Shown here piece by piece: positions 21,310-51,283 of a DNA stretch of 64,000 nucleotides. The translations under genes were made by a program, and so were the position numbers. Source of the DNA: an uncultured delta proteobacterium. GTDB taxonomy: Bacteria > Desulfobacterota > Syntrophobacteria > BM002. The stretch is taken from positions 1-64,000 of the forward strand of contig CAVQGX010000043.1 in the NCBI GenBank assembly GCA_963712115.1, read 5' to 3'. Every line of letters starts with the position of its first letter. Position 1 is the stretch's first letter. The notes beneath the pieces are model-generated. The model was not told the DNA's origin, ran no database searches, and saw nothing but the letters and a program-made list of their open reading frames with translations.

Positions 21310-22566
21310 ATGAAGAGTTTTTCATTCATTCATACCGCTGATTTGCACCTGGATAGCCCTTTCACTGGACTGCGTCAGGTGGATGGCACTGTTGCCTCTC
21401 TGATCAAAGATGCCACCTTTAGGGCATTTGATAACGTGGTGGATTTAGCCCTTCGCCACAAAGTGGATTTTCTCCTCGTGGCCGGGGACGTATACGATGG
21501 TTCTGATCGGAGTTTGCGTGCTCAGCTTAAGTTTGCCGACGGGTTGGAAAAACTTGCTCGGGCGGGAGTTCGTTCTTTTGTTTGCCATGGCAATCACGAT
21601 CCTCTGGACGGCTGGTCCGCCGCCCTTCGTTGGCCGGAGGGGGTCCACATTTTCGGCCCGGAGCTGGAGTCTATTCCTTTGGTTCTCGACGGTGAAAATG
21701 TTGTGGTTGTTCATGGTATCAGTTACCCCAAATCGCAGATAGACGAAGATTTCGGCAAGGGTTTTCACCGCCAGGGGCCATATCCCTTTCAGATCGGCCT
21801 GTTTCACTGCAGCTTGGGAAGCGATCCAGCCCATGAGACCTACGCCCCCCGCACAATTAATGAACTGGTGTCCGCAGACCTGGATTATTGGGCTTTGGGT
21901 CATGTTCACACATACCGGCTGCTGAAAGACGGCCACCCCTTTATTGCATATCCGGGAAACACTCAGGGACTCCATATTCGTGAGCCCGGCCCTCGCGGCT
22001 GCCTTGTAGTGCAGGTGGATGGGCAAGGAACAGTCAATGCCAGATTCGAGCCGACAGACGCTGTGCGCTGGTTTTCTAAAAATATTCAGATCAATGATCT
22101 TGAGACAGAACCAGATCTCATCGAAGCACTGGAACGAACCTGTGATGAGATTCGCCATGAAGCTCAGGGACGGCCGGCCATTGCCAGAATCACCATTATT
22201 GGTAGGGGCGTGTTGCATTCGGTTTTACGGAGGCCGCAAGTGGTGGGTGACCTGATGGAGCGTTTGCGTGAGACAGGACTTGAATCAGCGCCGCCGCTTT
22301 GGATCGAGCGGATCCAGGTTCAAACGAATACCCCTATTGATTTAGATTCTAGGAGAAATTCTGCTGATTTTCTTGGTGAGGTTCTACGGCTTATTGAAAA
22401 TTCTCGCCGGAATCCGACGGGGCTACAGGAAGTGATCAGCGAGCTTTACCATGATCGGCGGGTGCGAAGATTTTTGGAGATCCCTGCAGAAGAAGAGGTT
22501 GTTGAAATCCTCGGTGAAGTTGAAAGCATGTGTTTGGATGAGCTCGTGGCGGAGGAGACCGAGTGA
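21310..22566 (+). CDS. yhaO: DNA repair exonuclease, Mre11/SbcD-like YhaO family
   Basis: HTADLHLDSPF, AGDVYD, GNHD, DYWALGHVH, YPGNTQG. Confidence 0.9.
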   Translation: MKSFSFIHTADLHLDSPFTGLRQVDGTVASLIKDATFRAFDNVVDLALRHKVDFLLVAGDVYDGSDRSLRAQLKFADGLEKLARAGVRSFVCHGNHDPLDGWSAALRWPEGVHIFGPELESIPLVLDGENVVVVHGISYPKSQIDEDFGKGFHRQGPYPFQIGLFHCSLGSDPAHETYAPRTINELVSADLDYWALGHVHTYRLLKDGHPFIAYPGNTQGLHIREPGPRGCLVVQVDGQGTVNARFEPTDAVRWFSKNIQINDLETEPDLIEALERTCDEIRHEAQGRPAIARITIIGRGVLHSVLRRPQVVGDLMERLRETGLESAPPLWIERIQVQTNTPIDLDSRRNSADFLGEVLRLIENSRRNPTGLQEVISELYHDRRVRRFLEIPAEEEVVEILGEVESMCLDELVAEETE

Positions 22567-39972: not shown

Positions 39973-40713
39973 TTATCTTTTGCTTCTTTTGAGGCGCCGC
40001 TCGCTGCTTCTCTGGCGCTTACGCTCTTTATCCTTTTTCCTCCTCTCTCTTCTCATTGGATCAGGGTCCCTGGCGGGGTCAAGCAAAAAAGAACCAATCA
40101 TTTCCGTTACATCCACTTTGCGAGGCTTAGGGGCTTTCGGTCGTGAGACCTTAGTGGGCTTGGGAGATTCGCGGAGAGGCGGGCCACTCAGGAAGGGGGG
40201 AGGGAGAGTTCTTACCAAATAGAGGAATTCGCCACAAAGAGAAAAGGCGTGGCCTTTATCGTGGGCCTGAGCCGCATGTATGGTCAAAAGTATCGGTTTG
40301 GGGTCACGACGTCTACCAATACGCAAGGCTATTTCCTCTGTTGTGGCCAAGGGCACATAGGGACGGCCTGCCGGCCTGAGCCCATGCTTGAGGATCACGG
40401 GGTAAGCCTTTCTTCTTGCGGCGTAAAAGAGCAATCGAGGCGGGACAGTGGTTGAACTTATCTGCTCCCTCGGTTGTTTGGGTTTTATATAATTTTCCTC
40501 TAGGGTGAAGGCTGACTCAAATTGGGAGTAAGCCAATTCTTGCAGATGGCTCAAACGGATGTGCTTCAAGCCTTCTTCCTCATGAAGGGCCCACAGGAGC
40601 TCTTTGATAGGGAGGGAGCCATCATTGTCCAAAAATAGCCCGAATTCATCAGGTCGGTAGAGGAGGATGTACTCGATGATTTTTCCTAGTTCCTGAAGCT
40701 GGTATTTCCTCAA
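39973..40713 (-). CDS. RNA 2'-phosphotransferase (KptA/Tpt1)-like protein with divergent motifs
   Basis: RPDEFGLFLDNDG, PPRLLFY, ILKHGLRP, IGRRR..KPILLTI.A..A. Confidence 0.75.
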   Translation of the reverse strand: MRKYQLQELGKIIEYILLYRPDEFGLFLDNDGSLPIKELLWALHEEEGLKHIRLSHLQELAYSQFESAFTLEENYIKPKQPREQISSTTVPPRLLFYAARRKAYPVILKHGLRPAGRPYVPLATTEEIALRIGRRRDPKPILLTIHAAQAHDKGHAFSLCGEFLYLVRTLPPPFLSGPPLRESPKPTKVSRPKAPKPRKVDVTEMIGSFLLDPARDPDPMRRERRKKDKERKRQRSSERRLKRSKR

Positions 40714-40772
40714 TGTTTGGTCCCAGAGTTCTGTGCAAGCAAATTGTTGGTCAATTTATCTACCTTTTATTC

Positions 40773-40801
40773 TTGACACAATCCCGCCTATTCTCTATGG
40801 T
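40773..40801 (+). promoter_or_regulatory. sigma70 promoter of the leader-liv-paaK-ior operon
   Basis: TTGACA-N17-TATGGT. Confidence 0.7.
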
Positions 40802-40843
40802 ATAGCATCATTCATCCGAAAGGCAAGGAGTCGGGAGTACTTC

Positions 40844-40927
40844 ATGGCCTTCTCCGCGAGACAGACCGTCCTCCAGAGATATTATTACTTTTTTTATTAT
40901 TTTAGTGGGGAGACGTCTGTCCACTAG
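40844..40927 (+). CDS. Tyr/Phe-rich attenuator leader peptide, 27 aa (MAFSARQTVLQRYYYFFYYFSGETSVH)
   Basis: GGGAG RBS 6 nt before ATG; eight consecutive Tyr/Phe codons at 40880-40903; overlapping alternative hairpins. Confidence 0.85.
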   Translation: MAFSARQTVLQRYYYFFYYFSGETSVH

Positions 40928-41023
40928 CCCTGTTCAACCTATAGAATCGAGGCCGGGGGCAGACTCAACTGCCTGCGGCTTTTTTGTCTGCAAAGAGGCC
41001 GCCACATGAAAGCGGCTTTTTTT
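40860..41023 (+). promoter_or_regulatory. transcription attenuator with two terminators
   Basis: Pairings 1:2 (40860-74/40907-21), 2:3 (40915-29/40951-64), 3:4 terminator (40951-85), 4:5 (40975-86/40991-41002), 5:6 terminator (40992-41023). Confidence 0.8.
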
Positions 41024-41193
41024 GTTTGATTCTGGCCTCGAAAGAGTTTTTTGTGGAGCTTAAGCCTGGACCATCTAAGGTGCGAATTTTTTGATATTGA
41101 CAAAATCTAAGAAACACGGGAAAGGAGGTGACACCCCATCCACATTCGGTGTAAGAGATTATGATGCCATATGACCTAGAGGAGGGAAAATCA

Positions 41194-42354
41194 ATGAAGA
41201 TAAAGGGAAGATCGATATGGATAGCGCTGGCGTTAACCATCTCACTTGTTTTGGTATTTTCGTGCGCTAAAGAGAAAGAGCCTTATAAAGTGGGCGCCGT
41301 TTTCTCAGCCACTGGCCGTGCCTCGTTCCTGGGTGAACCCGAAAAAAAGACTGTCGAGATGATCGCCGAGGCAATAAACAAGGTTGGTGGTATCAATGGC
41401 CATCGACTGGAGGTCATACTCTATGATGACGAAAGTGACGAAACCAAAAGCGTCCTTGCGGTTAAACGGCTAATTAAGAAAGACAATGTCCCCGTGATCA
41501 TCGGACCCAGCCTCAGTGGTAACACTATGGCGGTGATCAAAGTTGCGAATGATGAGCAGATCCCCTTGGTTTCCTGTGCGGCCAGCAACAAGATTGTGAC
41601 TCCGGTGGCAGAGCGAAAGTGGGTCTTCAAGGTACCGCAGTCGGATAGCCATGCGGTTGAAAAAATTTATGATTATCTGCTGAAAAATGGCATGACTAAG
41701 ATTGCCATCATGAGCGTTTCCACTGGGTTCGGTGCCAGCGGTCGCGAAGAACTGCTGCGACTAGCTCCTGAAGTTGGCATAGAGATACTGGCGGACGAAC
41801 GCTATGGCCCTAAGGATACTGATATTACCGCTCAACTTACTCGCATCCGCGGCACCGGAGCACAGGCAATTGTCAACTGGTCTGTGGGACCCACCCAGGT
41901 TCTGGCAGTAAAAAACTGGAAAGATCTGGGAATGACATCCATTCCGTTCTTTCAGAGTCACGGCTTTGGGAGTCACAAAAACATCGAGCTAGCGGCAGGT
42001 GCCGCCGAAGGCGTATTTTGTCCTCTGGGCAAGGTCAATATTCCTCTACTTGTTGCTGATGACGATCCACAAAAGAAGGTAATAATGCTTTACAACGAAG
42101 CCTATGAGCAAAAGTACAATGAACCCATATCGTCCTTTGGCGGGCATGCCTGGGATTCGCTGAACCTAGTCATCGATGCCATGAGGAGTGTGGGACCCGA
42201 TTCAGCTAAAATTAGGGACTACATCGAGAACCGACAAAAATTCATCGGTCAGCACGGCGTGTTCAATTTCTCTCCCACCGATCACAATGGCCTTACCAAG
42301 GAGGCCTTTGTAATGGTAGTGGTGAAGGAAAACACTTGGGCCTTGGCTCCTTAG
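41194..42354 (+). CDS. livK: ABC transporter substrate-binding lipoprotein (LivK superfamily)
   Basis: Lipobox VFSC, TGRASFLGEPEK, GGING, YDDESD, QSHG, GGHAWD; GAGGAGG RBS. Confidence 0.9.
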   Translation: MKIKGRSIWIALALTISLVLVFSCAKEKEPYKVGAVFSATGRASFLGEPEKKTVEMIAEAINKVGGINGHRLEVILYDDESDETKSVLAVKRLIKKDNVPVIIGPSLSGNTMAVIKVANDEQIPLVSCAASNKIVTPVAERKWVFKVPQSDSHAVEKIYDYLLKNGMTKIAIMSVSTGFGASGREELLRLAPEVGIEILADERYGPKDTDITAQLTRIRGTGAQAIVNWSVGPTQVLAVKNWKDLGMTSIPFFQSHGFGSHKNIELAAGAAEGVFCPLGKVNIPLLVADDDPQKKVIMLYNEAYEQKYNEPISSFGGHAWDSLNLVIDAMRSVGPDSAKIRDYIENRQKFIGQHGVFNFSPTDHNGLTKEAFVMVVVKENTWALAP

Positions 42355-42380
42355 AGTTCAATAAGAATGCGATGGCGATG

Positions 42381-42416
42381 GAAGCCTCTCCAGTCCTTTG
42401 GTCAGGAGAGGCTTTC
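42381..42416 (+). terminator. hairpin after the SBP gene (partial terminator or mRNA stabiliser)
   Basis: gaagcctctcc ... ggagaggctttc. Confidence 0.5.
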
Positions 42417-42430
42417 TGTTGAAGATTGCT

Positions 42431-42788
42431 TAGCCCGGATGTTTCATGAATCCGCCTAAGGCGGACCACGGATATGGTCGTCCTTCTCTCCGAGCTGTAG
42501 GCTCTACGAGCCCGAGGCCGTGCGTCCTCGGGTGTCGGCCCCTGCGACGTACCATTCAGGTACGCCTCGGCTTCGATCTTGGATTTGGGATTTCGGATCT
42601 CGGATTTTTGAGTACAATTGGTGATATAGAACTTAACAGTTCAGATCTCACCATTTGCTCTCTGGTTCTCGCGAACTCTTCAGCAAATTTTAAATCCGCA
42701 TTCCGCAATCCGCATTCCGCAATCGTCGACCCGGTGGCACGTCCATCTTCGTGGTCTCGTGACACCAATTCATGAAACATCCGGGCTA
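42431..42788. mobile_element. MITE copy 3, reverse orientation, with a nested ~150-bp heptamer-flanked insert
   Basis: tagcccggatgtttcatgaat ... attcatgaaacatccgggcta; TA at both ends. Confidence 0.85.
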
Positions 42789-42820
42789 GAACTGGACAAA
42801 AGCTTCAAGTTGTTGTTGCT

Positions 42821-43723
42821 ATGGAAAGAATTTCCTTAATAGGACAGCTCACTCAGTATCTTTTCACTGGAATCACCGTGGGAAGCATTTACGCTTTGGT
42901 GGCCGTGGGCTTTAATATCATCTACAACGTTACAGAAATAATTAACTTCGCCCAGGGCGAGTTTGTCATGCTGGGCGGGCTTATTATGGTCTTTTTCACC
43001 GCTGCGGCTAAACTGCCTCTGCCAATAGCTTTTGTTCTGACAGTCACGGCGGTCACCGGTGTGGGAGTTTTGATGGAGAGGTTTACCATTAACCCACTCA
43101 AAAATGCCACCGTATTGACGATGATTATCGTCACCATCGCTGTTTCAATTCTCTTTAAGGGAATTGCTATGTTTGTTTGGGGCAAAGATCCGTATATTAT
43201 CCCACCATTTAGCGGAAGCGAACCAATATTCATCCTCGGAGCAGCTATTCAAACCCAGACATTATGGGTGCTGCTCATAACTGCGGTAGTGGTAGTGCTG
43301 CTGACCCTCTTTTTTAAGAAAACACGATATGGTAAAGCCATGCTGGCATGTGCCGATGATCCCGAAGCGGCTCGCCTAGTAGGCATTAGAGTTAACATTA
43401 TGATTTTAATTTCTTTTGCCTTGAGTGCGGCCATTGGTGCAGTTGCGGGAGCCATAATCACTCCCATATCCCTGATGGAATACGACCGAGGTGCCCTTTT
43501 AGCCTTAAAGGGTTTTGGCGCTGCTGTGATGGGTGGCTTGGGAAGTTTTTATGGAGCAGTGGTGGCTGGTATTTTTCTTGGAATTATCGAATCCCTATGC
43601 GCTGGTTTTGTTTCCTCAGGCTACAAGGATGCTGTAGCGCTTCTTCTACTGCTCTTGGTTTTATACGTTCGTCCAAGTGGTTTGTTTGGCAATGTAGAGG
43701 CGAGCAAAATAAAGGAGTTCTAG
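42821..43723 (+). CDS. livH: ABC permease LivH
   Basis: GSIYALVAVGF, INFAQGEF, KGFGAAVMGGLGS. Confidence 0.92.
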   Translation: MERISLIGQLTQYLFTGITVGSIYALVAVGFNIIYNVTEIINFAQGEFVMLGGLIMVFFTAAAKLPLPIAFVLTVTAVTGVGVLMERFTINPLKNATVLTMIIVTIAVSILFKGIAMFVWGKDPYIIPPFSGSEPIFILGAAIQTQTLWVLLITAVVVVLLTLFFKKTRYGKAMLACADDPEAARLVGIRVNIMILISFALSAAIGAVAGAIITPISLMEYDRGALLALKGFGAAVMGGLGSFYGAVVAGIFLGIIESLCAGFVSSGYKDAVALLLLLLVLYVRPSGLFGNVEASKIKEF

Positions 43724-43733
43724 TACTTAGGAC

Positions 43734-44690
43734 ATGCAGAAATCCAATCTAAAAATGCTTTTTTGCTTGATTATCTTTCTTGCCCTGTTTCCGGCGGTGG
43801 TTTTTAATGTGAGGGCAATTGGCCACTATCTCGACGTGATGATATTTGTCGGTATCTACAGTTTAATAAACATGGGACTAAGCCTTCTCATGGGTTATGC
43901 GGGTCAGATCTCCCTTGGACACGCAGCCTTTTTTGGTCTGGGAGCTTACACTTCAGGGATATTATGCACAAAACTTTCCCTGTCTCCATGGCTAGCCATG
44001 GTTGCCGGCGTTTTCCTGACAGCTCTGGTTGCATACATTGTGGGCGTTCCGTCGCTGAAACTAAAAGGGCACTATCTTGCCATGGCCACCCTTGGTTTTG
44101 GTGTTATCGTCTACATTTTTTTCAATGAGGAGGTGGCCCTCACCGGTGGTCCCTCTGGATTTTCAGACATTCCGGGGTTAACCATCTTTGGTTTAGACCT
44201 AAATAATGATCTCTATTACTATATCCTGGTTTGGTCGCTGGTGTTGCTTACCCTGGTTTTCTCGCTCAATGTGATTAATTCCCGTATAGGCAGGGCCTTG
44301 CGTTCTTTGCACGACAGTGAAGTTGCAGCAGACGCAATGGGGGTTGAAACCTCGAGATTCAAAGTCATCATTTTTGTCTTAAGCGCTGCATATGCCTCCC
44401 TTGCCGGAAGTCTCTACACCCATTACGTAGGTTTCTTGAGCCCCAGTTCTTTTGATCTCTTCCTTTCTATAAAACTGGTAATGATGGTAGTGGTGGGTGG
44501 CATGCATAACATCTGGGGAGCGCTTCTCGGTACCTGGCTGCTTACTTTTTTGGGGAACGAGTGGCTTCATGTTTTCCGCGATTTTGATATTCTAGTCTAT
44601 GGAGCTGTTCTCCTGGCTATTGTAATGTTTCTGCCTGAAGGTTTGGTTGATCTAACTCCGAAAATGAGACGGTTATGGAAGCGAAGCTGA
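43734..44690 (+). CDS. livM: ABC permease LivM
   Basis: GYAGQISLGHAAFFGLGAY, GHYLAMATL, TGGPSG. Confidence 0.92.
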   Translation: MQKSNLKMLFCLIIFLALFPAVVFNVRAIGHYLDVMIFVGIYSLINMGLSLLMGYAGQISLGHAAFFGLGAYTSGILCTKLSLSPWLAMVAGVFLTALVAYIVGVPSLKLKGHYLAMATLGFGVIVYIFFNEEVALTGGPSGFSDIPGLTIFGLDLNNDLYYYILVWSLVLLTLVFSLNVINSRIGRALRSLHDSEVAADAMGVETSRFKVIIFVLSAAYASLAGSLYTHYVGFLSPSSFDLFLSIKLVMMVVVGGMHNIWGALLGTWLLTFLGNEWLHVFRDFDILVYGAVLLAIVMFLPEGLVDLTPKMRRLWKRS

Positions 44691-44812
44691 AAGCCTGAGC
44701 TTGGCGGCGCCATGCGCGCCCCGGCTTTCCTTTTGTGCTCTTTGTGAACCTCGCCGTTGGGATCCCATGTTAAGAATTGTTTGCGGCAGCCTGAGATTTT
44801 GGTGAGATTTAA

Positions 44813-45607
44813 ATGGCTTCTGAGAATTTCAACACTTTCCTGCGCGTAGAGGACCTGCGCAAATCATTTGGTGGCGTGCGAGCTCTAAAGGGGTTAAGCT
44901 TCACGGTAGCTTCCGGAATGATCAAGGCAATTATCGGACCAAACGGGGCGGGAAAGACAACACTATTCAATATAATTAGTGGGGTTTTCCCACCCAACAA
45001 TGGATCCATTATCTTTGAAGGTGTGCCTATCGAGGGCAGGAAGTCCCGGGAGATTGCCCGCCTAGGTGTTTCCCGGACTTTTCAAAACGTGGAAGTATTT
45101 GGTCGTATGACTGTGCTGGAAAATGTAATGGTGGGAAGGCACATCCAGAGTCGGGCCGGAATAATCAGTACAGGTCTCAAACTGCCTTGGATGAGGAGGG
45201 AGGAGCGACAGATCCGGAACGGTGCAAGGGATTACCTGGAATTCGTAGGGCTAGAACACAAAGCAGGCGAGTTAGCTGGTAATCTGCCTTTAGGGGAACA
45301 AAAGCTTCTTGAGATAGCCCGAGCATTGGCCACAGAACCAAAAATACTGTTGCTGGACGAGCCAGCTGGGGGGCTGAATACCAGAGAGACTGAAGAGTTG
45401 GCGGCATTGATCCGGCGGATTCTGGAAAGGGGAATCACAGTAGTGTTGGTCGAGCACGACATGAATCTTGTAATGGACATTTCGGACGAGATCGTTGTCA
45501 TGAACTTTGGTGAAAAAATCGCTGAAGGCAAGCCGAAACAAATAAAGAATGATCCCGTGGTGGTCGAAGCTTATTTAGGGGAAGAGGTTGATTATTCAGA
45601 TCTCTAG
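44813..45607 (+). CDS. livG: ABC ATPase LivG
   Basis: GPNGAGKTT, RTFQN, LLDEPAGG, VEHDM, EAYLG. Confidence 0.93.
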   Translation: MASENFNTFLRVEDLRKSFGGVRALKGLSFTVASGMIKAIIGPNGAGKTTLFNIISGVFPPNNGSIIFEGVPIEGRKSREIARLGVSRTFQNVEVFGRMTVLENVMVGRHIQSRAGIISTGLKLPWMRREERQIRNGARDYLEFVGLEHKAGELAGNLPLGEQKLLEIARALATEPKILLLDEPAGGLNTRETEELAALIRRILERGITVVLVEHDMNLVMDISDEIVVMNFGEKIAEGKPKQIKNDPVVVEAYLGEEVDYSDL

Positions 45608-45721
45608 CGCGAAGCGCATTGCGCTTAGAGCTAGGCATATACCTTGAGCCTTATGCCCCTGGCGTTTGACTCTCCGCTCATCGAACACAACGCAAGATAT
45701 GTGGTAAGTGAAAACTAAACC

Positions 45722-46450
45722 ATGCTAACACTTAAAAGTGTCCACACTTACTACGGCAATATTCACGCTCTTAGGGGTGTTTCTCTTCATGTAAACCAAG
45801 GCGAAATAGTGACATTAATAGGCGCCAACGGAGCCGGTAAGACTACGGTTTTAAAAACAATTTCCGGAATTACCCCTGCCAGTCGCGGTTCCATTACTTT
45901 CGAAGGGAGGGACTTAACTAGGGTGGCAGCTGAGGAGATCGTCCGGGCCGGCATTTCTCACGTTCCAGAAGGACGGAAGGTCTTTTCCACCCTAAGCTTG
46001 CGAGATAACCTTGAAATGGGCGGATTTATCCGTAGGGACAAGAAAGAAGTACAAGCGGATATGGATCGTTTCAGAGAGAAGTTTCCCATTCTCTCTGACC
46101 GATGGAATCAGATGGCAGGTACCCTTAGTGGTGGTGAACAACAAGTCTTGGCTATAACTCGAGCCTTAATGGCGAGGCCAAGGCTTCTAATACTGGACGA
46201 ACCTTCCATGGGTCTTTCACCTTTGCTAGTCAAGGAAACGTTTAAAATCATAAAAACATTGCGAGAAGAGGGAACCACCATTTTGCTCATCGAACAGAAC
46301 GCCCGTGCCGCCCTTCACATAGCAGATCGTGGCTATGTGCTGGAAACTGGCAAAATCGTCCTCCAGGGGAAATGCCGGATGCTTCTCGAGCACGAAGAAG
46401 TAAAGCGGGCCTATCTCGGCAAAGGCTATCGGGAAGTTTGGGAGGACTGA
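45722..46450 (+). CDS. livF: ABC ATPase LivF
   Basis: GANGAGKTT, VPEGR, LSGGEQQ, LDEPSMGL, EQNA. Confidence 0.93.
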   Translation: MLTLKSVHTYYGNIHALRGVSLHVNQGEIVTLIGANGAGKTTVLKTISGITPASRGSITFEGRDLTRVAAEEIVRAGISHVPEGRKVFSTLSLRDNLEMGGFIRRDKKEVQADMDRFREKFPILSDRWNQMAGTLSGGEQQVLAITRALMARPRLLILDEPSMGLSPLLVKETFKIIKTLREEGTTILLIEQNARAALHIADRGYVLETGKIVLQGKCRMLLEHEEVKRAYLGKGYREVWED

Positions 46451-46655: not shown

Positions 46656-47960
46656 ATGAAGATTTGGGATGCGGATTATGAATGTATGCCACGGGACGAG
46701 CTAGCCCAGTTGCAGCTTGAGCGCCTACAGGCAACGCTCAATCGGGTTTACAAGAACGTCGCTTTTTACCGGAAGAAATTTGATGAGATTGACTTTGAGC
46801 CTGAGGACCTTGTTGAGCTGAATGATCTGGGGAAACTGCCTTTCACCTGCAGCAGGGATCTCAGTGATGCTTACCCCTATGATCTTTTCGCCGTTCCCTT
46901 GCGAGAGGTGGTAAGGGTCCATTCTTCCTCAGGTGCCACCAAGCCAGTTGTTGTAGGTTATACTAGACAGGACCTTAAAAATTGGAGCGAGCTTGTAGCC
47001 CGCGTTCTTACCGCCGGAGGCGTCACGGCTGACGATGTGGTACAAGTGACGCTGAATTATGGACTTCTCACCGGAGGCTTGGGACTCCACTATGGAGCCG
47101 AGCTCATCGGTGCGTCAGTACTTCCCACCTCAGTTGGGCGTACTGAACGGCAGGTAAAAATTATGCAAGACTACCGTACCACGGCTTTAGTGGCTACTCC
47201 TTCTTATGCTCTGGTTATAGCTGATCGCATGGAAAGGATGGGCGTTGATGCGAAGACACTTACGCTCAAGTTTGCCATGCTTGCCGGGGAGCCATGGTCT
47301 GAGGAGATGCGACAGGAAATTGAAGCAAGATTGTACGTCAAGGCTACGGACAATTACGGCCTCAGCGAGATAATGGGGCCTGGGGTGGCTGGCGAATGTC
47401 TTTATCAGGCCGGAATGCATCTGAACGAGGATCATTTCATTTTTGAGGTAGTGGATCCAAAAACGGGAGAGAATTTGCAGCCCGGGGAAGTTGGGGAACT
47501 GATCATAACAACTGTTACCAAAGAGGCATTTCCTCTGATCAGGTTTCGTACAGGTGATCTCTGCTCTATGCAATCTGAGACTTGCCAGTGCGGTCGGAGT
47601 CTGGCCCGCATGAGCAGGGTGCTCGGCCGTACCGACCAGGTAATCATAGTAAAAGGCATAAATATCATTCCGAGTCGCGTGGGTGATCTTCTTGAGGAAG
47701 TCCTAGGAAGCAAGCCCCCTTACCAGTTGGTGGTGGACAGAAAAGGCCACCTAGACAGCCTTACGGTGCAAGTTGAGGTTTCTGAGGACCTATTCTTTGA
47801 CAAAATGCGGGAGCAGCGCTCCTTGATAGAGAGAATGGGTGAAAAGGTCGCGGGGGGAATCGGAGTTACCCCAAAAATTATTTTGGTTGAACCTGGGTCC
47901 ATCAAGCGGGAGAAAGAGACTGCCTTCAAAGTGGTGGATTACAGGAAACTATCCAAATGA
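46656..47960 (+). CDS. paaK: phenylacetate (arylacetate)-CoA ligase
   Basis: HSSSGATKP, YGLLTGGLGLHYGAE, GEPWSE, DNYGLSEIMGPGV, RFRTGD, GRTD. Confidence 0.93.
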   Translation: MKIWDADYECMPRDELAQLQLERLQATLNRVYKNVAFYRKKFDEIDFEPEDLVELNDLGKLPFTCSRDLSDAYPYDLFAVPLREVVRVHSSSGATKPVVVGYTRQDLKNWSELVARVLTAGGVTADDVVQVTLNYGLLTGGLGLHYGAELIGASVLPTSVGRTERQVKIMQDYRTTALVATPSYALVIADRMERMGVDAKTLTLKFAMLAGEPWSEEMRQEIEARLYVKATDNYGLSEIMGPGVAGECLYQAGMHLNEDHFIFEVVDPKTGENLQPGEVGELIITTVTKEAFPLIRFRTGDLCSMQSETCQCGRSLARMSRVLGRTDQVIIVKGINIIPSRVGDLLEEVLGSKPPYQLVVDRKGHLDSLTVQVEVSEDLFFDKMREQRSLIERMGEKVAGGIGVTPKIILVEPGSIKREKETAFKVVDYRKLSK

Positions 47961-47973
47961 CATTGTACTTGTA

Positions 47974-48076
47974 GTCCGTGGCCTGTTGTCAAGAGCGGCA
48001 TAGGGCATAGAGCATGAGGCATAGGGCAAAATCTCAAATTCAAAACCGCTGTGCTCTTGACGCTCTGCGCTTTGCG
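47974..48076 (+). repeat. left arm of a ~100-bp inverted repeat flanking iorA
   Basis: Matches the reverse complement of 50017-50112. Confidence 0.8.
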
Positions 48077-48139
48077 GCCAACGAAGTGAGCTCAACTGAC
48101 TACGGACCGGGAAAAATTAGCAAACTGAGAGGTAAAAAA

Positions 48140-49999
48140 ATGCATGAACTGCTGGCAGCCGAACCGGGTAGCAAGAGATTACTCCTGGGAAACGAGGCTA
48201 TTGTCCGAGGGGCTCTTGAGGCAGGTATCTCCTTTGCCACCACCTACCCCGGAACTCCCTCCTCGGAGATCGGCGACAATTTCTATCGAATATCCCAAGA
48301 AACAGATATTTATTTCGAGTATTCGGTAAATGAGAAAGTAGCACTAGAAACTGCAGCTGCGGCTTCGACTTCTGGTCTGCGCACCATGTGCAGCATGAAG
48401 CATGTTGGCTTGAATGTAGCGTCCGATGCTCTTATGACTTTGGCTTATGTAGGGGTAAAGGGAGGCATGGTCATAGTCAGTGCTGACGATCCCTCAATGC
48501 ACTCCAGCCAAAACGAACAGGACAACCGTTTCTACGCCAGATTCGCCGGAATACCTATGCTCGAGCCAGCCAATTCCCAGGAAGCCTTGGATATGGCCCG
48601 GGCCGCTTTTGCGCTGTCCGAGTCCCATGGTATTCCAGTCCTGCTGCGCACCACTACGCGAGTAAATCACAGCCGGTCCGTTGTAGAGGTGGGACCATTG
48701 CAGGACTCGAGGGTGAAAGGGAGCTTCATAAAGGATCCCCTTAACCTCGTGCCGGTGCCCATGGTGGCAAGAAGGCTTCACGTTGAACTACTCGAAAAGC
48801 TAAAAAAATTACGAGTGGAGGCTGATAGTTCGTCTTTCAACAGAGTTGAAGGGGAGGGGACCTGGGGAGTGGTAACCAGTGGGGTGAGTTACAACTATGT
48901 CAAGGATGCCATTCGAGAATTAAATATTGCCGACCAAGTTCAGGTGCTAAAACTGGGAATGACCTATCCATTTCCAGAGGCACTCTGCTTGGACTTCATT
49001 GGAAAAGTTAAGAAAGTTCTGGTGGTTGAAGAGTTGGAGCCCTTCTTGGAAGACATGCTCAAGGTGACAGCTCAGGAACAAGGGCTGACAATCAAAATTA
49101 AGGGTAAGGGTGATGAATTACTGCCCCGTTACTTCGAATTCGATCCAGTCCTGGTCAAGTCAGCCGTTGCCCGGTTTTTCCAACTGGATTATGAGCCACC
49201 GAAGGTGGAAATGAGATCGGATCTTCCTCAGCGACCGCCTAATCTTTGCGCGGGTTGTCCGCACAGAGCCAGTTATTATGCGGTGAGACAGGCATTTGGC
49301 GAAGGGGGTGCTATTTACCCATCTGACATAGGTTGTTACACTCTGGGGTTACTGCCGCCTCTCGCTGCAGCCGACTATCTCCTTTGTATGGGATCCAGTG
49401 TTTCCAGCGCTGGCGGTTTTTCCAAGGCTCAGGACCAGCCTGTAGTGGCTTTTGTTGGCGATTCGACCTTCTTCCACTCGGGTGTTACCGGGCTTATTAA
49501 TGCTGTCCAGAATGAACACAATTTTATCCTGGTAATTTTGGACAACGGCACAACCGCCATGACAGGACAGCAGCCCCATCCTGGGGTGGAACTCACTGAA
49601 GAAGGGCGCCAGCCTCCCAAAGTGGATCTTAAGGCATTAGTTCGAGGTTGCGGTGTAGATCGGGTAGTTGTGGTTAATCCCCTGCAGGTTGAAAAGACAG
49701 TCGCCACTATAAAAGAGGTTATGCAAGACAAACCTGGTGTAAAGGTGGTCATCTCAAAATCACCCTGTCCGCTATTCGAAAGACGTGTCACTGGCAAGAA
49801 ACAGAAGGTTGTTTTTAGGGTGACTAACGAGTGCGATATGTGTAGAAGGTGCCTGGATGAGCTCGGATGTCCGGCCTTTACCTACTGTGAGGATGAGAAT
49901 GAGTGCGCTTTTATTGCAATCGATGAACATTTATGCAGCGGTTGCAGCGTCTGTAAGCAAATTTGTCACGCAATAAAGCCGAAGAAGAAGAGTGCTTAA
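48140..49999 (+). CDS. iorA: indolepyruvate:ferredoxin oxidoreductase alpha subunit
   Basis: GNEAIVRG, YPGTPSSE, MKHVGLN, SSQNEQD, CAGCPHR, GDSTFFHSG TPP motif, C-terminal ferredoxin Cys motifs. Confidence 0.95.
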   Translation: MHELLAAEPGSKRLLLGNEAIVRGALEAGISFATTYPGTPSSEIGDNFYRISQETDIYFEYSVNEKVALETAAAASTSGLRTMCSMKHVGLNVASDALMTLAYVGVKGGMVIVSADDPSMHSSQNEQDNRFYARFAGIPMLEPANSQEALDMARAAFALSESHGIPVLLRTTTRVNHSRSVVEVGPLQDSRVKGSFIKDPLNLVPVPMVARRLHVELLEKLKKLRVEADSSSFNRVEGEGTWGVVTSGVSYNYVKDAIRELNIADQVQVLKLGMTYPFPEALCLDFIGKVKKVLVVEELEPFLEDMLKVTAQEQGLTIKIKGKGDELLPRYFEFDPVLVKSAVARFFQLDYEPPKVEMRSDLPQRPPNLCAGCPHRASYYAVRQAFGEGGAIYPSDIGCYTLGLLPPLAAADYLLCMGSSVSSAGGFSKAQDQPVVAFVGDSTFFHSGVTGLINAVQNEHNFILVILDNGTTAMTGQQPHPGVELTEEGRQPPKVDLKALVRGCGVDRVVVVNPLQVEKTVATIKEVMQDKPGVKVVISKSPCPLFERRVTGKKQKVVFRVTNECDMCRRCLDELGCPAFTYCEDENECAFIAIDEHLCSGCSVCKQICHAIKPKKKSA

Positions 50000-50016
50000 G
50001 GTCTGTTGTCTAGATT

Positions 50017-50112
50017 CGCAAAGCGCAGAGCGCCAGGCGCATAGCGGTTTTGAATTTAATATTTTACCCTAGGCTCTATGCTCTGTGCCGCTTTTGACAA
50101 CCGACCGCGGAC
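50017..50112 (-). repeat. right arm of the inverted repeat flanking iorA
   Basis: Shares aaattcaaaaccgct and cgctctgcgctttgcg with the left arm. Confidence 0.8.
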
Positions 50113-50183
50113 GCTTGACGCATGGATGTACACGCCCATGGTTGTGACGGATCTGCAATTAGTCGACAACTGAGGAACAAGGT

Positions 50184-50765
50184 ATGGAAAGCTGGCGTAT
50201 TTTTTTTACTGGTGTAGGCGGGCAGGGTACCTTGCTGGCCACCAGGGTGTTAGGTGAAGCGGCGCTAGTCTCTAATATTCCTGTGGTGGTGAGTGAGGTT
50301 CACGGTATGGCCCAGCGCGGAGGGGTGGTCGAGTCGGCAGTGGTGCTGGGCGAGGTACAGAGTCCAGTTATATCAGATGGTGAAGTAGACATCCTTATGG
50401 CCTTTGAACCGTTAGAGGCTTTGAGGGCAGTACGAAAGTGCTCGTCTCGTAGCCTGGTGATTTGCAACACTAGCCCTGTAGCTCCTTTTAGTGTATCCAG
50501 TGGCAGGGATCGATATCCAGATGTCTCTAGTATGATGAAAGCTATATGGAGCCAAGTAAGCAATCTCATTGCCTATGACGCCAGAGCTCTGGCCCGCGAA
50601 GCCGGCTCGGAGCTCTCGGTAAATATTGTGATGCTTGGAACCCTTATGCGCCATGCAACAATGCCCTTCGATGAGAAGGTGGTAAAGAAGGTTCTCAATA
50701 CTAGGACAAAGAAATCTTTTCTGGAGATAAATCTGAAGGCATTTGATTTGGGTTATGAGGTATGA
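50184..50765 (+). CDS. iorB: indolepyruvate:ferredoxin oxidoreductase beta subunit
   Basis: GVGGQG, SEVHGMAQRGG, FEPLEALR, NIVMLG, NLKAF. Confidence 0.94.
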   Translation: MESWRIFFTGVGGQGTLLATRVLGEAALVSNIPVVVSEVHGMAQRGGVVESAVVLGEVQSPVISDGEVDILMAFEPLEALRAVRKCSSRSLVICNTSPVAPFSVSSGRDRYPDVSSMMKAIWSQVSNLIAYDARALAREAGSELSVNIVMLGTLMRHATMPFDEKVVKKVLNTRTKKSFLEINLKAFDLGYEV

Positions 50766-51283
50766 TTAGACAAAAAACGTTAATCTTACTAGGATTACCA
50801 CTCCTCTGGCTTGTTCTTGCCAACGCCACTTGCAACAACAGAAAGGGCGAGGAAGATTTGGTCAACTCTTATAAGGTGGTGCGATTCCATTTGTCAGAGT
50901 GTCGCAATATGGGTGCAGATAGCTTGGATCCAGTTGGCCTGGAGGAGGCCATGCGTCTCACTGAGGAGGTGGGTGGAATGTTGGACAAGGGCAATTGGAC
51001 CCAGGCGAGTGAGGCCATTGCTCAATTGGAACAAACCGTCGGGTTTCTCCTCGAGCAGATGAAAAGCTGGGACCCAGATGAAGACGGCCTGAGTAACTAC
51101 GCAGAGTATATGTTGTACGGGACCTCTTGGGCAGATGGTGACACCGATGGGGATGGATATTTCGATGGTAGTGAAATTCTACATTTCGAAACGGATCCTC
51201 TGGATCACTGTGGAGTACCAATAGGTTTCCCTCTGGAGACTACAGTCCAACGTGACTGCCCGGCACTGGAGAAACTGAGGTAG
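50762..51283 (+). CDS. putative lipoprotein with Ca-binding DxDxDG (TSP3-like) repeats
   Basis: Signal peptide ending ATC; DPDEDGL..E..YGT, DTDGDGYFDG.E. Confidence 0.65.
   Translation: MIRQKTLILLGLPLLWLVLANATCNNRKGEEDLVNSYKVVRFHLSECRNMGADSLDPVGLEEAMRLTEEVGGMLDKGNWTQASEAIAQLEQTVGFLLEQMKSWDPDEDGLSNYAEYMLYGTSWADGDTDGDGYFDGSEILHFETDPLDHCGVPIGFPLETTVQRDCPALEKLR

Follow-up and report, generated by a model that had tools for sequence, protein, structure and literature searches.

A short element preceding an eight-gene transporter, ligase and oxidoreductase operon in an uncultured delta proteobacterium is, on the evidence of its sequence, very probably a Tyr/Phe-responsive leader-peptide transcription attenuator. 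The element occupies positions 40773 to 41023 of a stretch of 64,000 nucleotides (nt) from GenBank assembly GCA_963712115.1 (contig CAVQGX010000043.1, positions 1 to 64,000, forward strand; Bacteria; Desulfobacterota; Syntrophobacteria; BM002). We call this whole stretch the window. The operon downstream comprises a binding-protein gene, livHMGF, paaK and iorAB. We infer that the element reads the supply of charged tRNA-Tyr and, in the clade of the window, also that of charged tRNA-Phe. A preliminary description, drawn from the letters alone, had proposed ribosome-mediated attenuation here, and this is supported by the conserved anatomy of the leader, by synteny, by paralogous leaders in the same genome and by switching in silico.

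The leader and its predicted switching

The leader contains a sigma-70-like promoter, a ribosome-binding site (RBS), a 27-codon open reading frame (ORF) and eight consecutive aromatic codons, all found where the preliminary description had placed them (Table 1). The promoter hexamers, TTGACA at 40773-40778 and TATGGT at 40796-40801, reach 10 of 12 matches in a consensus scan, and the GGGAG of the RBS has AAGGAG (40826-40831) immediately 5' of it. The gene on the upstream side, divergent from the leader, is RNA 2'-phosphotransferase-like. Aromatic runs of at least seven codons occur only nine times in the 9.8 million six-frame codons of the 4.9-Mb genome; the other eight are pure or nearly pure F or W and come from T or TGG tracts, and the run in the leader is the sole mixed one. 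An Rfam 15 scan of 40000-42000 at E <= 10 gave no leader-family or riboswitch match, and none of the Rfam leader families (Phe, Trp, His, Leu, Thr and others) is matched at its gathering score. The five matches obtained, to unrelated small RNA (sRNA) and microRNA models, score 11.7-20.9 bits where the gathering scores are 50-160.

The minimum-free-energy fold of 40808-41035 holds a hairpin of segments 1 and 2 (1:2, 40860-40921), with the regulatory codons in its apical, weakly paired part, and a terminator of segments 3 and 4 (3:4, here T1; 40951-40979, then T6 at 40980-40985). Both had been described before; the fold has z = -2.68, and 2 of 200 shuffles fold equally well. The alternative pairing 2:3 that had been put forward was found as well, with eight continuous pairs (40915-40922 with 40957-40964) and further pairs at 40924:40955 and at 40927-40929 with 40951-40953. 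The earlier account of a single terminator stands for T1 but had overlooked a second, tandem terminator, T2. In isolation the energies are -22.9 kcal/mol for 1:2, -23.6 for 2:3, -21.5 for 3:4 and -13.9 for T2; a further hairpin, 4:5, discussed below, has -17.3 kcal/mol.

To follow the ribosome, we masked a 30-nt footprint, assumed to run from -15 to +14, on a transcript that lacks segment 4 and what follows it, as at the point where the switch would be decided. The probability of 2:3 is 0.85-1.00 when any of codons 13-20 occupies the A site, falls to 0.50 for codon 21 and is 0 for every codon from 22 to the stop. On this truncated transcript a mask on the aromatic codons therefore gives the antiterminator and a mask on the stop gives none, as the stall-or-stop scheme of the preliminary description had it. 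The full transcript without a ribosome folds as 1:2, 3:4 and T2. The element has the features by which leader-peptide attenuators are known: a predicted short ORF with RBS and start codon in the 5' leader, a cluster of regulating codons (the eight consecutive Tyr/Phe codons), mutually exclusive pairings 1:2, 2:3 and 3:4 in silico, an intrinsic 3:4 terminator (G+C stem and U run) ahead of the first structural gene and, in masked folding, a segment 2 that is freed or masked according to the position of the ribosome.

The mechanism would run as follows. Transcription would start from the promoter at 40773-40801 and a ribosome would translate the 27-codon leader. With Tyr and Phe plentiful, the ribosome would reach the TAG at 40925 and, because this codon lies inside segment 2, would cover that segment; 3:4 would then form and RNA polymerase would stop at the U run (40980-40985), with T2 as back-up. 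If the leader were not translated, 1:2 would pair, 3:4 would form and transcription would likewise stop. Scarcity of Tyr-tRNA or Phe-tRNA would stall the ribosome on codons 13-20 and leave segment 2 free to pair with segment 3 as this emerges, T1 would be blocked, and the polymerase would enter the operon.

Paralogous leaders and conservation

The strongest argument comes from other leaders of like architecture in the same genome, found by searching with a covariance model of the leader (R1) at a relaxed threshold and by scanning for aromatic upstream ORFs (uORFs) followed by terminators (Table 1). Since these leaders carry the amino acid of the pathway downstream of them, the run in the window would be a sensor. 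Tyr/Phe leaders precede both the DAHP synthase gene and the operon of ADH synthase, DHQ synthase II, aroD, aroE, aroA and tyrA, so that the genome has both entries to the shikimate pathway, each behind an aromatic leader. The Trp-rich leader on C26 precedes livH, livM, livG, livF, two PaaK-family ligase genes and a Peripla_BP_6 protein gene, without an indolepyruvate:ferredoxin oxidoreductase (IOR); it is kept, as WPWWW or WFWWWW, in 3 of the 15 other searched genomes of the genus. The trpE and leuA leaders are weak matches to R1. An alignment-free duplex search of 20 leaders recovered the pairing of segment 2 with segment 3, at an unchanged register, in 19, all but that of leuA, and paralogues differ in compensatory fashion, for instance with GUCUGUCCAC/GUGGGCAGAC in the window against GUUUAUCCAC/GUGGGUAAAC for trpE.

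Orthologous leader DNA is present in 16 of the 17 other genomes of the genus and in all four other genera of the family; on every contig of sufficient length it is flanked by the 2'-phosphotransferase-like gene and the binding-protein gene. All 16 aligned orthologous leaders have an intact uORF and the ATG is invariant; the RBS region is mostly at least 90% conserved and both promoter hexamers are kept. Mean identity in this alignment is 0.93-0.96 for segments 2, 3 and 4 (0.95 for segment 2), 0.76 for uORF codons 2-12, 0.72 for the nucleotides of the aromatic run, and 0.78 and 0.63 for the loops of T1 and T2. The runs of the relatives are mostly Tyr (YYYYYYY, YYYYYFYY, YYYYCYY, YYFYYY, YYYYYY), with TAT/TAC synonymous variation that keeps the residue, and at least two Phe codons within the run occur only in the closest relatives of the window. 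To judge from these alignments, the ancestral run is one of tyrosine, and the Phe codons reflect local variation in the clade of the window. Of the joint Tyr/Phe sensing first suggested, the Tyr signal is therefore the conserved part, and Phe is frequent only in that clade. R1 matches 21 of the 22 genomes of the order, with uORF, the 1:2, 2:3 and 3:4 pairings and terminator; its single miss (G009) is uninformative because the contig stops inside the binding-protein gene.

One genome of the order, G019 (72% complete), has lost the operon. Its leader (locus L019 on G019:C98) keeps the promoter, the hairpins including segment 2, T1 and T2, and is without ATG, Tyr run and stop codon. The whole eight-gene operon is missing from the locus, where the leader is followed directly by the TSP3-repeat lipoprotein gene that in the window follows iorB. 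No IorA match was found in this genome at E <= 1e-100, and all 21 other genomes of the order have one. It is a natural experiment in which the leader ORF has decayed alongside loss of the operon.

Because covariation within the order was uninformative, the analysis was widened to the class, where R1 matches 76 of 122 genomes. Forty class-wide leaders were aligned, of which 33 stand directly upstream of an orthologue of the binding-protein gene (57-100% identity). The other seven precede ADH synthase (three), trpE (one) or genes with no or only a weak tblastn match (three: L124, L125 and L130, each with an ACT-domain DAHP-synthase-like gene downstream, by eye). At least five aromatic residues, mostly Tyr, fall within an 8-residue window in 30 of the 33 leaders that precede the binding-protein gene (all but L120, L123 and L132), and distant leaders have runs such as YRYYYYYGYF, GYYYYGY, SYYYYAY and SYYYYYCYY. 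The gene order binding protein-livH-livM-livG-livF-paaK-iorA-iorB follows the leader in all four checked genomes from two other families, and leader and operon thus form an old unit.

Pairing was then counted on the 40 leaders, in an alignment that was not fitted to 2:3, since this pairing is absent from the structure of R1. For 2:3, 90.2% of cells are paired, against 30-42% for slid partners, and cells with changes in both partners number 18, in four pairs; shuffles give 10.3 +/- 2.2, and none of 500 reaches 18. For T1, 95.6% are paired and 12 cells are changed on both sides, against 2.7 +/- 1.4. The shuffles ignore relatedness, so these figures are not to be read as probabilities. The preliminary description had named a Tyr/Phe-rich uORF ahead of orthologous operons and covarying stems as things to look for: the former is conserved across the class, and the latter are seen as both-side changes above the shuffles for 2:3 and T1, with the same reservation as to phylogeny.

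An FFYYF uORF at L039, in a metagenome-assembled genome of the Desulfobacterales, was rejected as a false positive lying over a promoter. The stretch 2840-2960 of the same locus, before a binding-protein gene of 63% identity, has a promoter, a uORF whose peptide (MASERQSTSVCDEPVGMKWKEL) contains no aromatic run, and a GC stem with T7 that resembles a terminator; this element may be a diverged or differently tuned leader. Three loci of 61-65% identity (L038, L050, L058) have no aromatic uORF. In other phyla, all three loci viewed (L040, L044, L047) have the binding-protein gene after paaK and ACT-domain genes, with no leader.

The conservation also bears on other explanations of the element. 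The leader could be a free-standing small gene, for a Tyr-rich peptide or a small RNA, if the operon had a separate promoter that has escaped recognition. That two strong tandem terminators follow the ORF, that some 170 nt lie between T2 and the binding-protein start, and that Rfam gives a weak likeness to terminator-bearing sRNAs, all far below gathering scores, would fit such a gene. It is nevertheless very improbable: the interval from T2 to the binding-protein start (41024-41193) has no predicted sigma-70-like promoter, the leader stays with the operon class-wide and has a decayed ORF in the genome that lost the operon, the peptide is variable outside the run while RNA segments 2 to 4 scarcely change, and paralogues carry the cognate amino acid, Trp before trpE and Leu before leuA. 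Retention of frame, ATG and stop codon, and synonymous TAT/TAC changes that keep Tyr, speak in turn against regarding the run as incidental to an A+T-rich hairpin loop or to slippage at TAT repeats, with control left to a protein or to a small-molecule-binding RNA. This idea would account for a run that lies in the apical, weakly paired part of 1:2 and is built of TAT, TAC and TTT, codons a single base apart; yet distant orthologues with quite different nucleotides still encode YYYYYGY-type runs, paralogues have TGG runs at the same place and no Rfam riboswitch matches, which makes it scarcely credible.

The second terminator and evidence against the attenuator

Among orthologous leaders the stem of T2 is conserved and its loop variable, and the leaders of trpE and DAHP synthase, like the Desulfosoma orthologue, also have a T2. 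As a constitutive T2 would defeat the attenuator, we propose a relay. With segment 3 engaged in 2:3, segment 4 and the U run would be free to pair with T2 along its A tract and 5' arm, and this 4:5 hairpin would be complete before the 3' arm of T2 is made, so that T2 would be bypassed too. The hairpin is predicted in all 16 orthologues at -10 to -18 kcal/mol, with 93.6% of cells pairing, and the 5' arm of T2 is complementary, by eye, to the 3' arm of T1 in the trpE and DAHP synthase leaders. We put the relay forward tentatively, as a possible way for the polymerase to pass T2.

Several results weigh against the attenuator or this extension of it. Read-through of T1 would be blocked by T2 unless T2 is weak or bypassed, and with 2:3 enforced the ensemble probability of T2 is still 0.73-0.89. 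The 4:5 pairing has no pair with compensatory changes, and slid controls already pair at 50-70%, a consequence of the loose pairing of U with A tracts. When the full transcript is folded at equilibrium, the terminator prevails with nearly every ribosome mask, so that any switch must be kinetic, as is trp attenuation in E. coli. Within the order, no pair of 2:3 is changed on both sides, and 1:2, T1 and T2 together have three such pairs, not above shuffles; covariation is nil or weak at this level because segments 2-4 are nearly invariant. Degraded runs occur where the operon is kept: YYRSFYYC in L005, HYYFFCYC in L006 and only HYGY in L120.

The transcript evidence also belongs here. Of the 19 listed runs, 12 are recorded as RNA and contain part of the stretch, and four metatranscriptome runs were examined as assembled contigs, which are blind to ends or levels and uninformative where they leave parts uncovered. 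One contig (X3 record 18, 40917-41318) spans T1, T2 and the binding-protein start, and two others cover 40942-41153 and 40969-41153. Contigs that span the terminators are compatible with read-through transcripts; carry-over of DNA is possible, since one RNA contig starts at 40745, upstream of the promoter.

Operon content and candidate role

The gene families read downstream as livKHMGF-paaK-iorAB in the preliminary description were confirmed, paaK at the level of the family. The binding-protein gene likely starts at 41194, with a lipoprotein-like signal. The ligase scores 493.3 bits against the cut-off of 646.3 of the PaaK equivalog model TIGR02155 and is a PaaK-like family member. IorA, at 790 bits, exceeds its equivalog cut-off of 650.9 and is the only IorA in the genome to do so, and IorB is borderline, at 198.8-205.7 bits just below cut-offs of 205.8 and 238. 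Among solved structures, those nearest to the binding protein (E 1e-44 to 1e-35) include CouP (4jb0), and amino-acid binders come much lower; 3sg0 and 4dqd presumably hold aromatic 2-oxo acids. An AlphaFold model of the binding protein made with nine sequences is poor (mean pLDDT 48.4). CouP is described as a ferulate-bound binder of aromatic acids in the cited part of PMC3610893.

The regulation suggests that the operon salvages aryl acetates into Tyr and Phe, a role in supply and not in catabolism to which we give at best an even chance. (4-Hydroxy)phenylacetate would be taken up, activated by the AMP-forming PaaK-type ligase, reductively carboxylated by IorAB to the arylpyruvate and transaminated to Tyr or Phe. 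If Tyr/Phe starvation induces the operon along with DAHP synthase and the aro/tyrA genes, as the leaders imply, its task would be one of supply. The Trp-leader operon on C26 would be the indoleacetate counterpart. Conversion of aryl acids to aromatic amino acids through IOR is on record for Methanococcus maripaludis (Porat et al. 2004, as cited in PMC4162585). Fermentative IOR pathways, in the account drawn on here, use ADP-forming, ATP-yielding synthetases (PMC5817080); the operon in the window has an AMP-forming ligase instead.

Against salvage, the genome also has de novo routes, and in sulfate reducers, by the cited account, IorAB is induced by phenylpyruvate and used catabolically, being formed specifically on that substrate in Desulfococcus multivorans and Desulfobacula toluolica (PMC5109826). 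The attenuator could then be real and the operon import aryl acids or aromatic amino acids to degrade or ferment them, IorAB turning arylpyruvate into arylacetyl-CoA and the leader merely tuning a scavenging transporter. IOR is, in the literature drawn on here, a classical enzyme of peptide fermentation, and LIV-type transporters commonly carry amino acids (NCBIfam matches). Induction by shortage of the product amino acid, however, is the logic of a supply gene, and like leaders would control DAHP synthase, the aro/tyrA operon and trpE in the same genome. An AMP-forming ligase would be needless where IOR yields the CoA ester, and costs ATP; the Trp-leader twin operon has two PaaK ligases as well; and the sulfate-reducer clusters, as excerpted from PMC5109826, adjoin two-component regulators and are substrate-induced. 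On this balance we consider a catabolic or fermentative role rather unlikely.

Salvage, if it holds, has wider consequences. Anaerobes commonly carry clusters of IOR, PaaK and LIV-type genes, and annotation usually assigns these to the breakdown of aromatic amino acids; a leader induced by starvation, of a kind also found before DAHP synthase, aro/tyrA and trpE, would be regulatory evidence for a supply route, and such a route would change inferences on carbon flow and auxotrophy for uncultured sediment Desulfobacterota. The most inclusive proposal, a Desulfobacterota class-wide aminoacyl-tRNA-sensing regulon with reverse IOR and a six-segment relay, is doubtful when all of its parts are taken together. 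Were it true, Tyr-run and Trp-run leaders would switch on shikimate genes and ABC-transporter/aryl-CoA-ligase/IOR operons, scavenged (4-hydroxy)phenylacetate and indoleacetate would be turned into Tyr, Phe and Trp by reverse IOR under shortage, and the relay (2:3, then 4:5) would defeat two tandem terminators at once.

The operon region shows further features. A small lipoprotein-like ORF with a bacterial TSP3 repeat lies after iorB (50762-51283) and is syntenic in G018 and G019. In G018 (single contig G018:C1; L106 at ~732 kb, L108 at ~1049 kb) the operon is split inside livF into halves ~308 kb apart, one with the leader, the binding-protein gene, livHMG and livF codons 1-59, the other with livF codons 58-242, paaK, iorAB and the TSP3 gene; this is either a rearrangement or a misassembly. 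An insertion resembling a miniature inverted-repeat transposable element (MITE) lies within the operon of the window (Table 1). It contains an ORF of 109 amino acids (42446-42775) with no Pfam match, and an Rfam scan of 42300-42900 gave no match. Its repeat end has 31 exact copies in the genome; the repeat core is not in the loci of 15 of 16 relatives, and in L021 a single copy sits further downstream. At 42430-42432 the element is joined, from different contexts, by many contigs of the RNA libraries.

Table 1. Features of the leader and operon in the window, and leaders elsewhere in the same genome (handles beginning with C are contigs of that genome).
Feature	Position	Strand	Description and basis
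Sigma-70-like promoter	40773..40801	+	TTGACA, 17 nt, TATGGT; read from sequence and promoter scan
RBS of leader ORF	40833..40837	+	GGGAG; read from sequence
Leader ORF	40844..40927	+	27 codons, MAFSARQTVLQRYYYFFYYFSGETSVH; ATG 40844, TAG 40925-40927
Regulatory codons	40880..40903	+	Codons 13-20: Tyr x3, Phe x2, Tyr x2, Phe
Segment 1	40860..40874	+	5' arm of 1:2 hairpin; fold
Segment 2	40907..40929	+	Predicted partner of segment 1 or 3, stop codon inside; folds, pair counts
Segment 3	40951..40964	+	Predicted antiterminator with segment 2, terminator with segment 4; folds, pair counts
Segment 4 and U run	40969..40985	+	3' half of T1; segment 4 40969-40979, U run 40980-40985
Intrinsic terminator T2	40992..41023	+	A tract, stem 40997-41002/41012-41017, variable loop, T7 41017-41023
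Proposed 4:5 relay hairpin	40975..41002	+	40975-40985 with 40992-41002, 11 pairs
Binding-protein gene	41194..42354	+	Peripla_BP_6 periplasmic binding protein, lipoprotein-type; first structural gene
MITE-like insertion	42431..42789	.	359 bp, perfect 21-bp terminal inverted repeats; between binding-protein gene and livH
livH, livM, livG, livF homologues	42821..46450	+	Two BPD_transp_2 permeases, two ABC ATPases
paaK	46656..47960	+	PaaK-family aryl-acetate-CoA ligase (AMP-forming)
iorA, iorB	48014..50765	+	IOR; iorA 48014-49999, iorB 50184-50765
Leader before DAHP synthase	C33:109748-109903	-	VGKASTGILFQCKYYFYYCAISLLEVR (YYFYY); T1 and T2
Leader before ADH synthase operon	C7 ~22160-22290	-	MKRRPSPFFCYYYYAMVAIEGAVRAC (FFCYYYY); one terminator
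Leader before trpE	C7:30190-30345	-	MKKNLNRQKNLVNWYWWWYVCVGVYPLPGE (WYWWWY); two tandem terminators
Leader before leuA	C42:67130-67240	+	Leu-rich; one terminator
Leader before second transporter operon	C26:115286-115418	-	MHLNRSWPWWWSSKDRSAHRPT (WPWWW); one terminator; operon downstream to ~C26:106000 (L088, L090)

Comparison with known systems

In the open-access literature searched, we found no description of a Tyr-run leader, none of a leader peptide before an IOR, PaaK or ABC operon, and none of the reductive carboxylation of phenylacetate; subscription papers, comparative ones of the Vitreschak type among them, and supplements lay outside this search and may contain earlier predictions. 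The nearest mixed leader is aroR of Corynebacterium glutamicum, which precedes aroF and has a Phe-Tyr-Phe triplet; as summarised in PMC11802643 (from Neshat et al. 2014), it responds to Phe limitation and is unaffected by Tyr. Like the window element, aroR joins Phe and Tyr codons in the attenuation of a gene for aromatic amino acid supply. The window type differs in its 6-8 consecutive codons dominated by Tyr, stands in a different phylum and, as far as tested, is not homologous; the target of aroR is a DAHP synthase gene, whose counterpart here is the C33 paralogue and not the element in the window. Because aroR had already been described, a mixed Phe/Tyr composition is not in itself new, but the target operon appears to be.

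The his leader of Salmonella and E. coli has more than four segments, whose alternating pairings relay the position of the ribosome to a distal terminator, and resembles in this the proposed sequence of 2:3 and then 4:5. It differs in that only its last hairpin terminates, whereas in the window 3:4 and 5:6 (T1 and T2) both look like complete intrinsic terminators. The IOR route of M. maripaludis, as far as the cited account goes, has in common with the window operon an IOR homologue and the logic of aryl-acid substrates, in an archaeon. We know of no leader-peptide control, ABC transporter or PaaK linkage in the M. maripaludis IOR work.

The anatomy of the window element is that of E. coli pheL and trpL: a short ORF with cognate codons, alternative pairings 1:2, 2:3 and 3:4, a 3:4 terminator (as described in the cited part of PMC11802643) and a stop codon placed so that the terminating ribosome blocks the antiterminator. 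It differs from pheL and trpL in having no sequence or Rfam-model similarity to them, in sensing, as it would seem, mainly Tyr, in the apical position of its codons within 1:2, between segments 1 and 2, in its two tandem terminators, and in a target that is a transporter/ligase/oxidoreductase operon and not a canonical biosynthetic one. The mechanism thus appears classical, the sensed residue and the kind of target appear new, and a double-terminator relay may be an addition. With a Tyr-dominated leader peptide, Tyr would join the few amino acids for which sensing by leaders is known, the cognate-codon runs of this leader family could serve to infer which class of substrate an uncharacterised transporter operon handles, and the tandem-terminator relay, if real, would be a testable design for tight attenuation.

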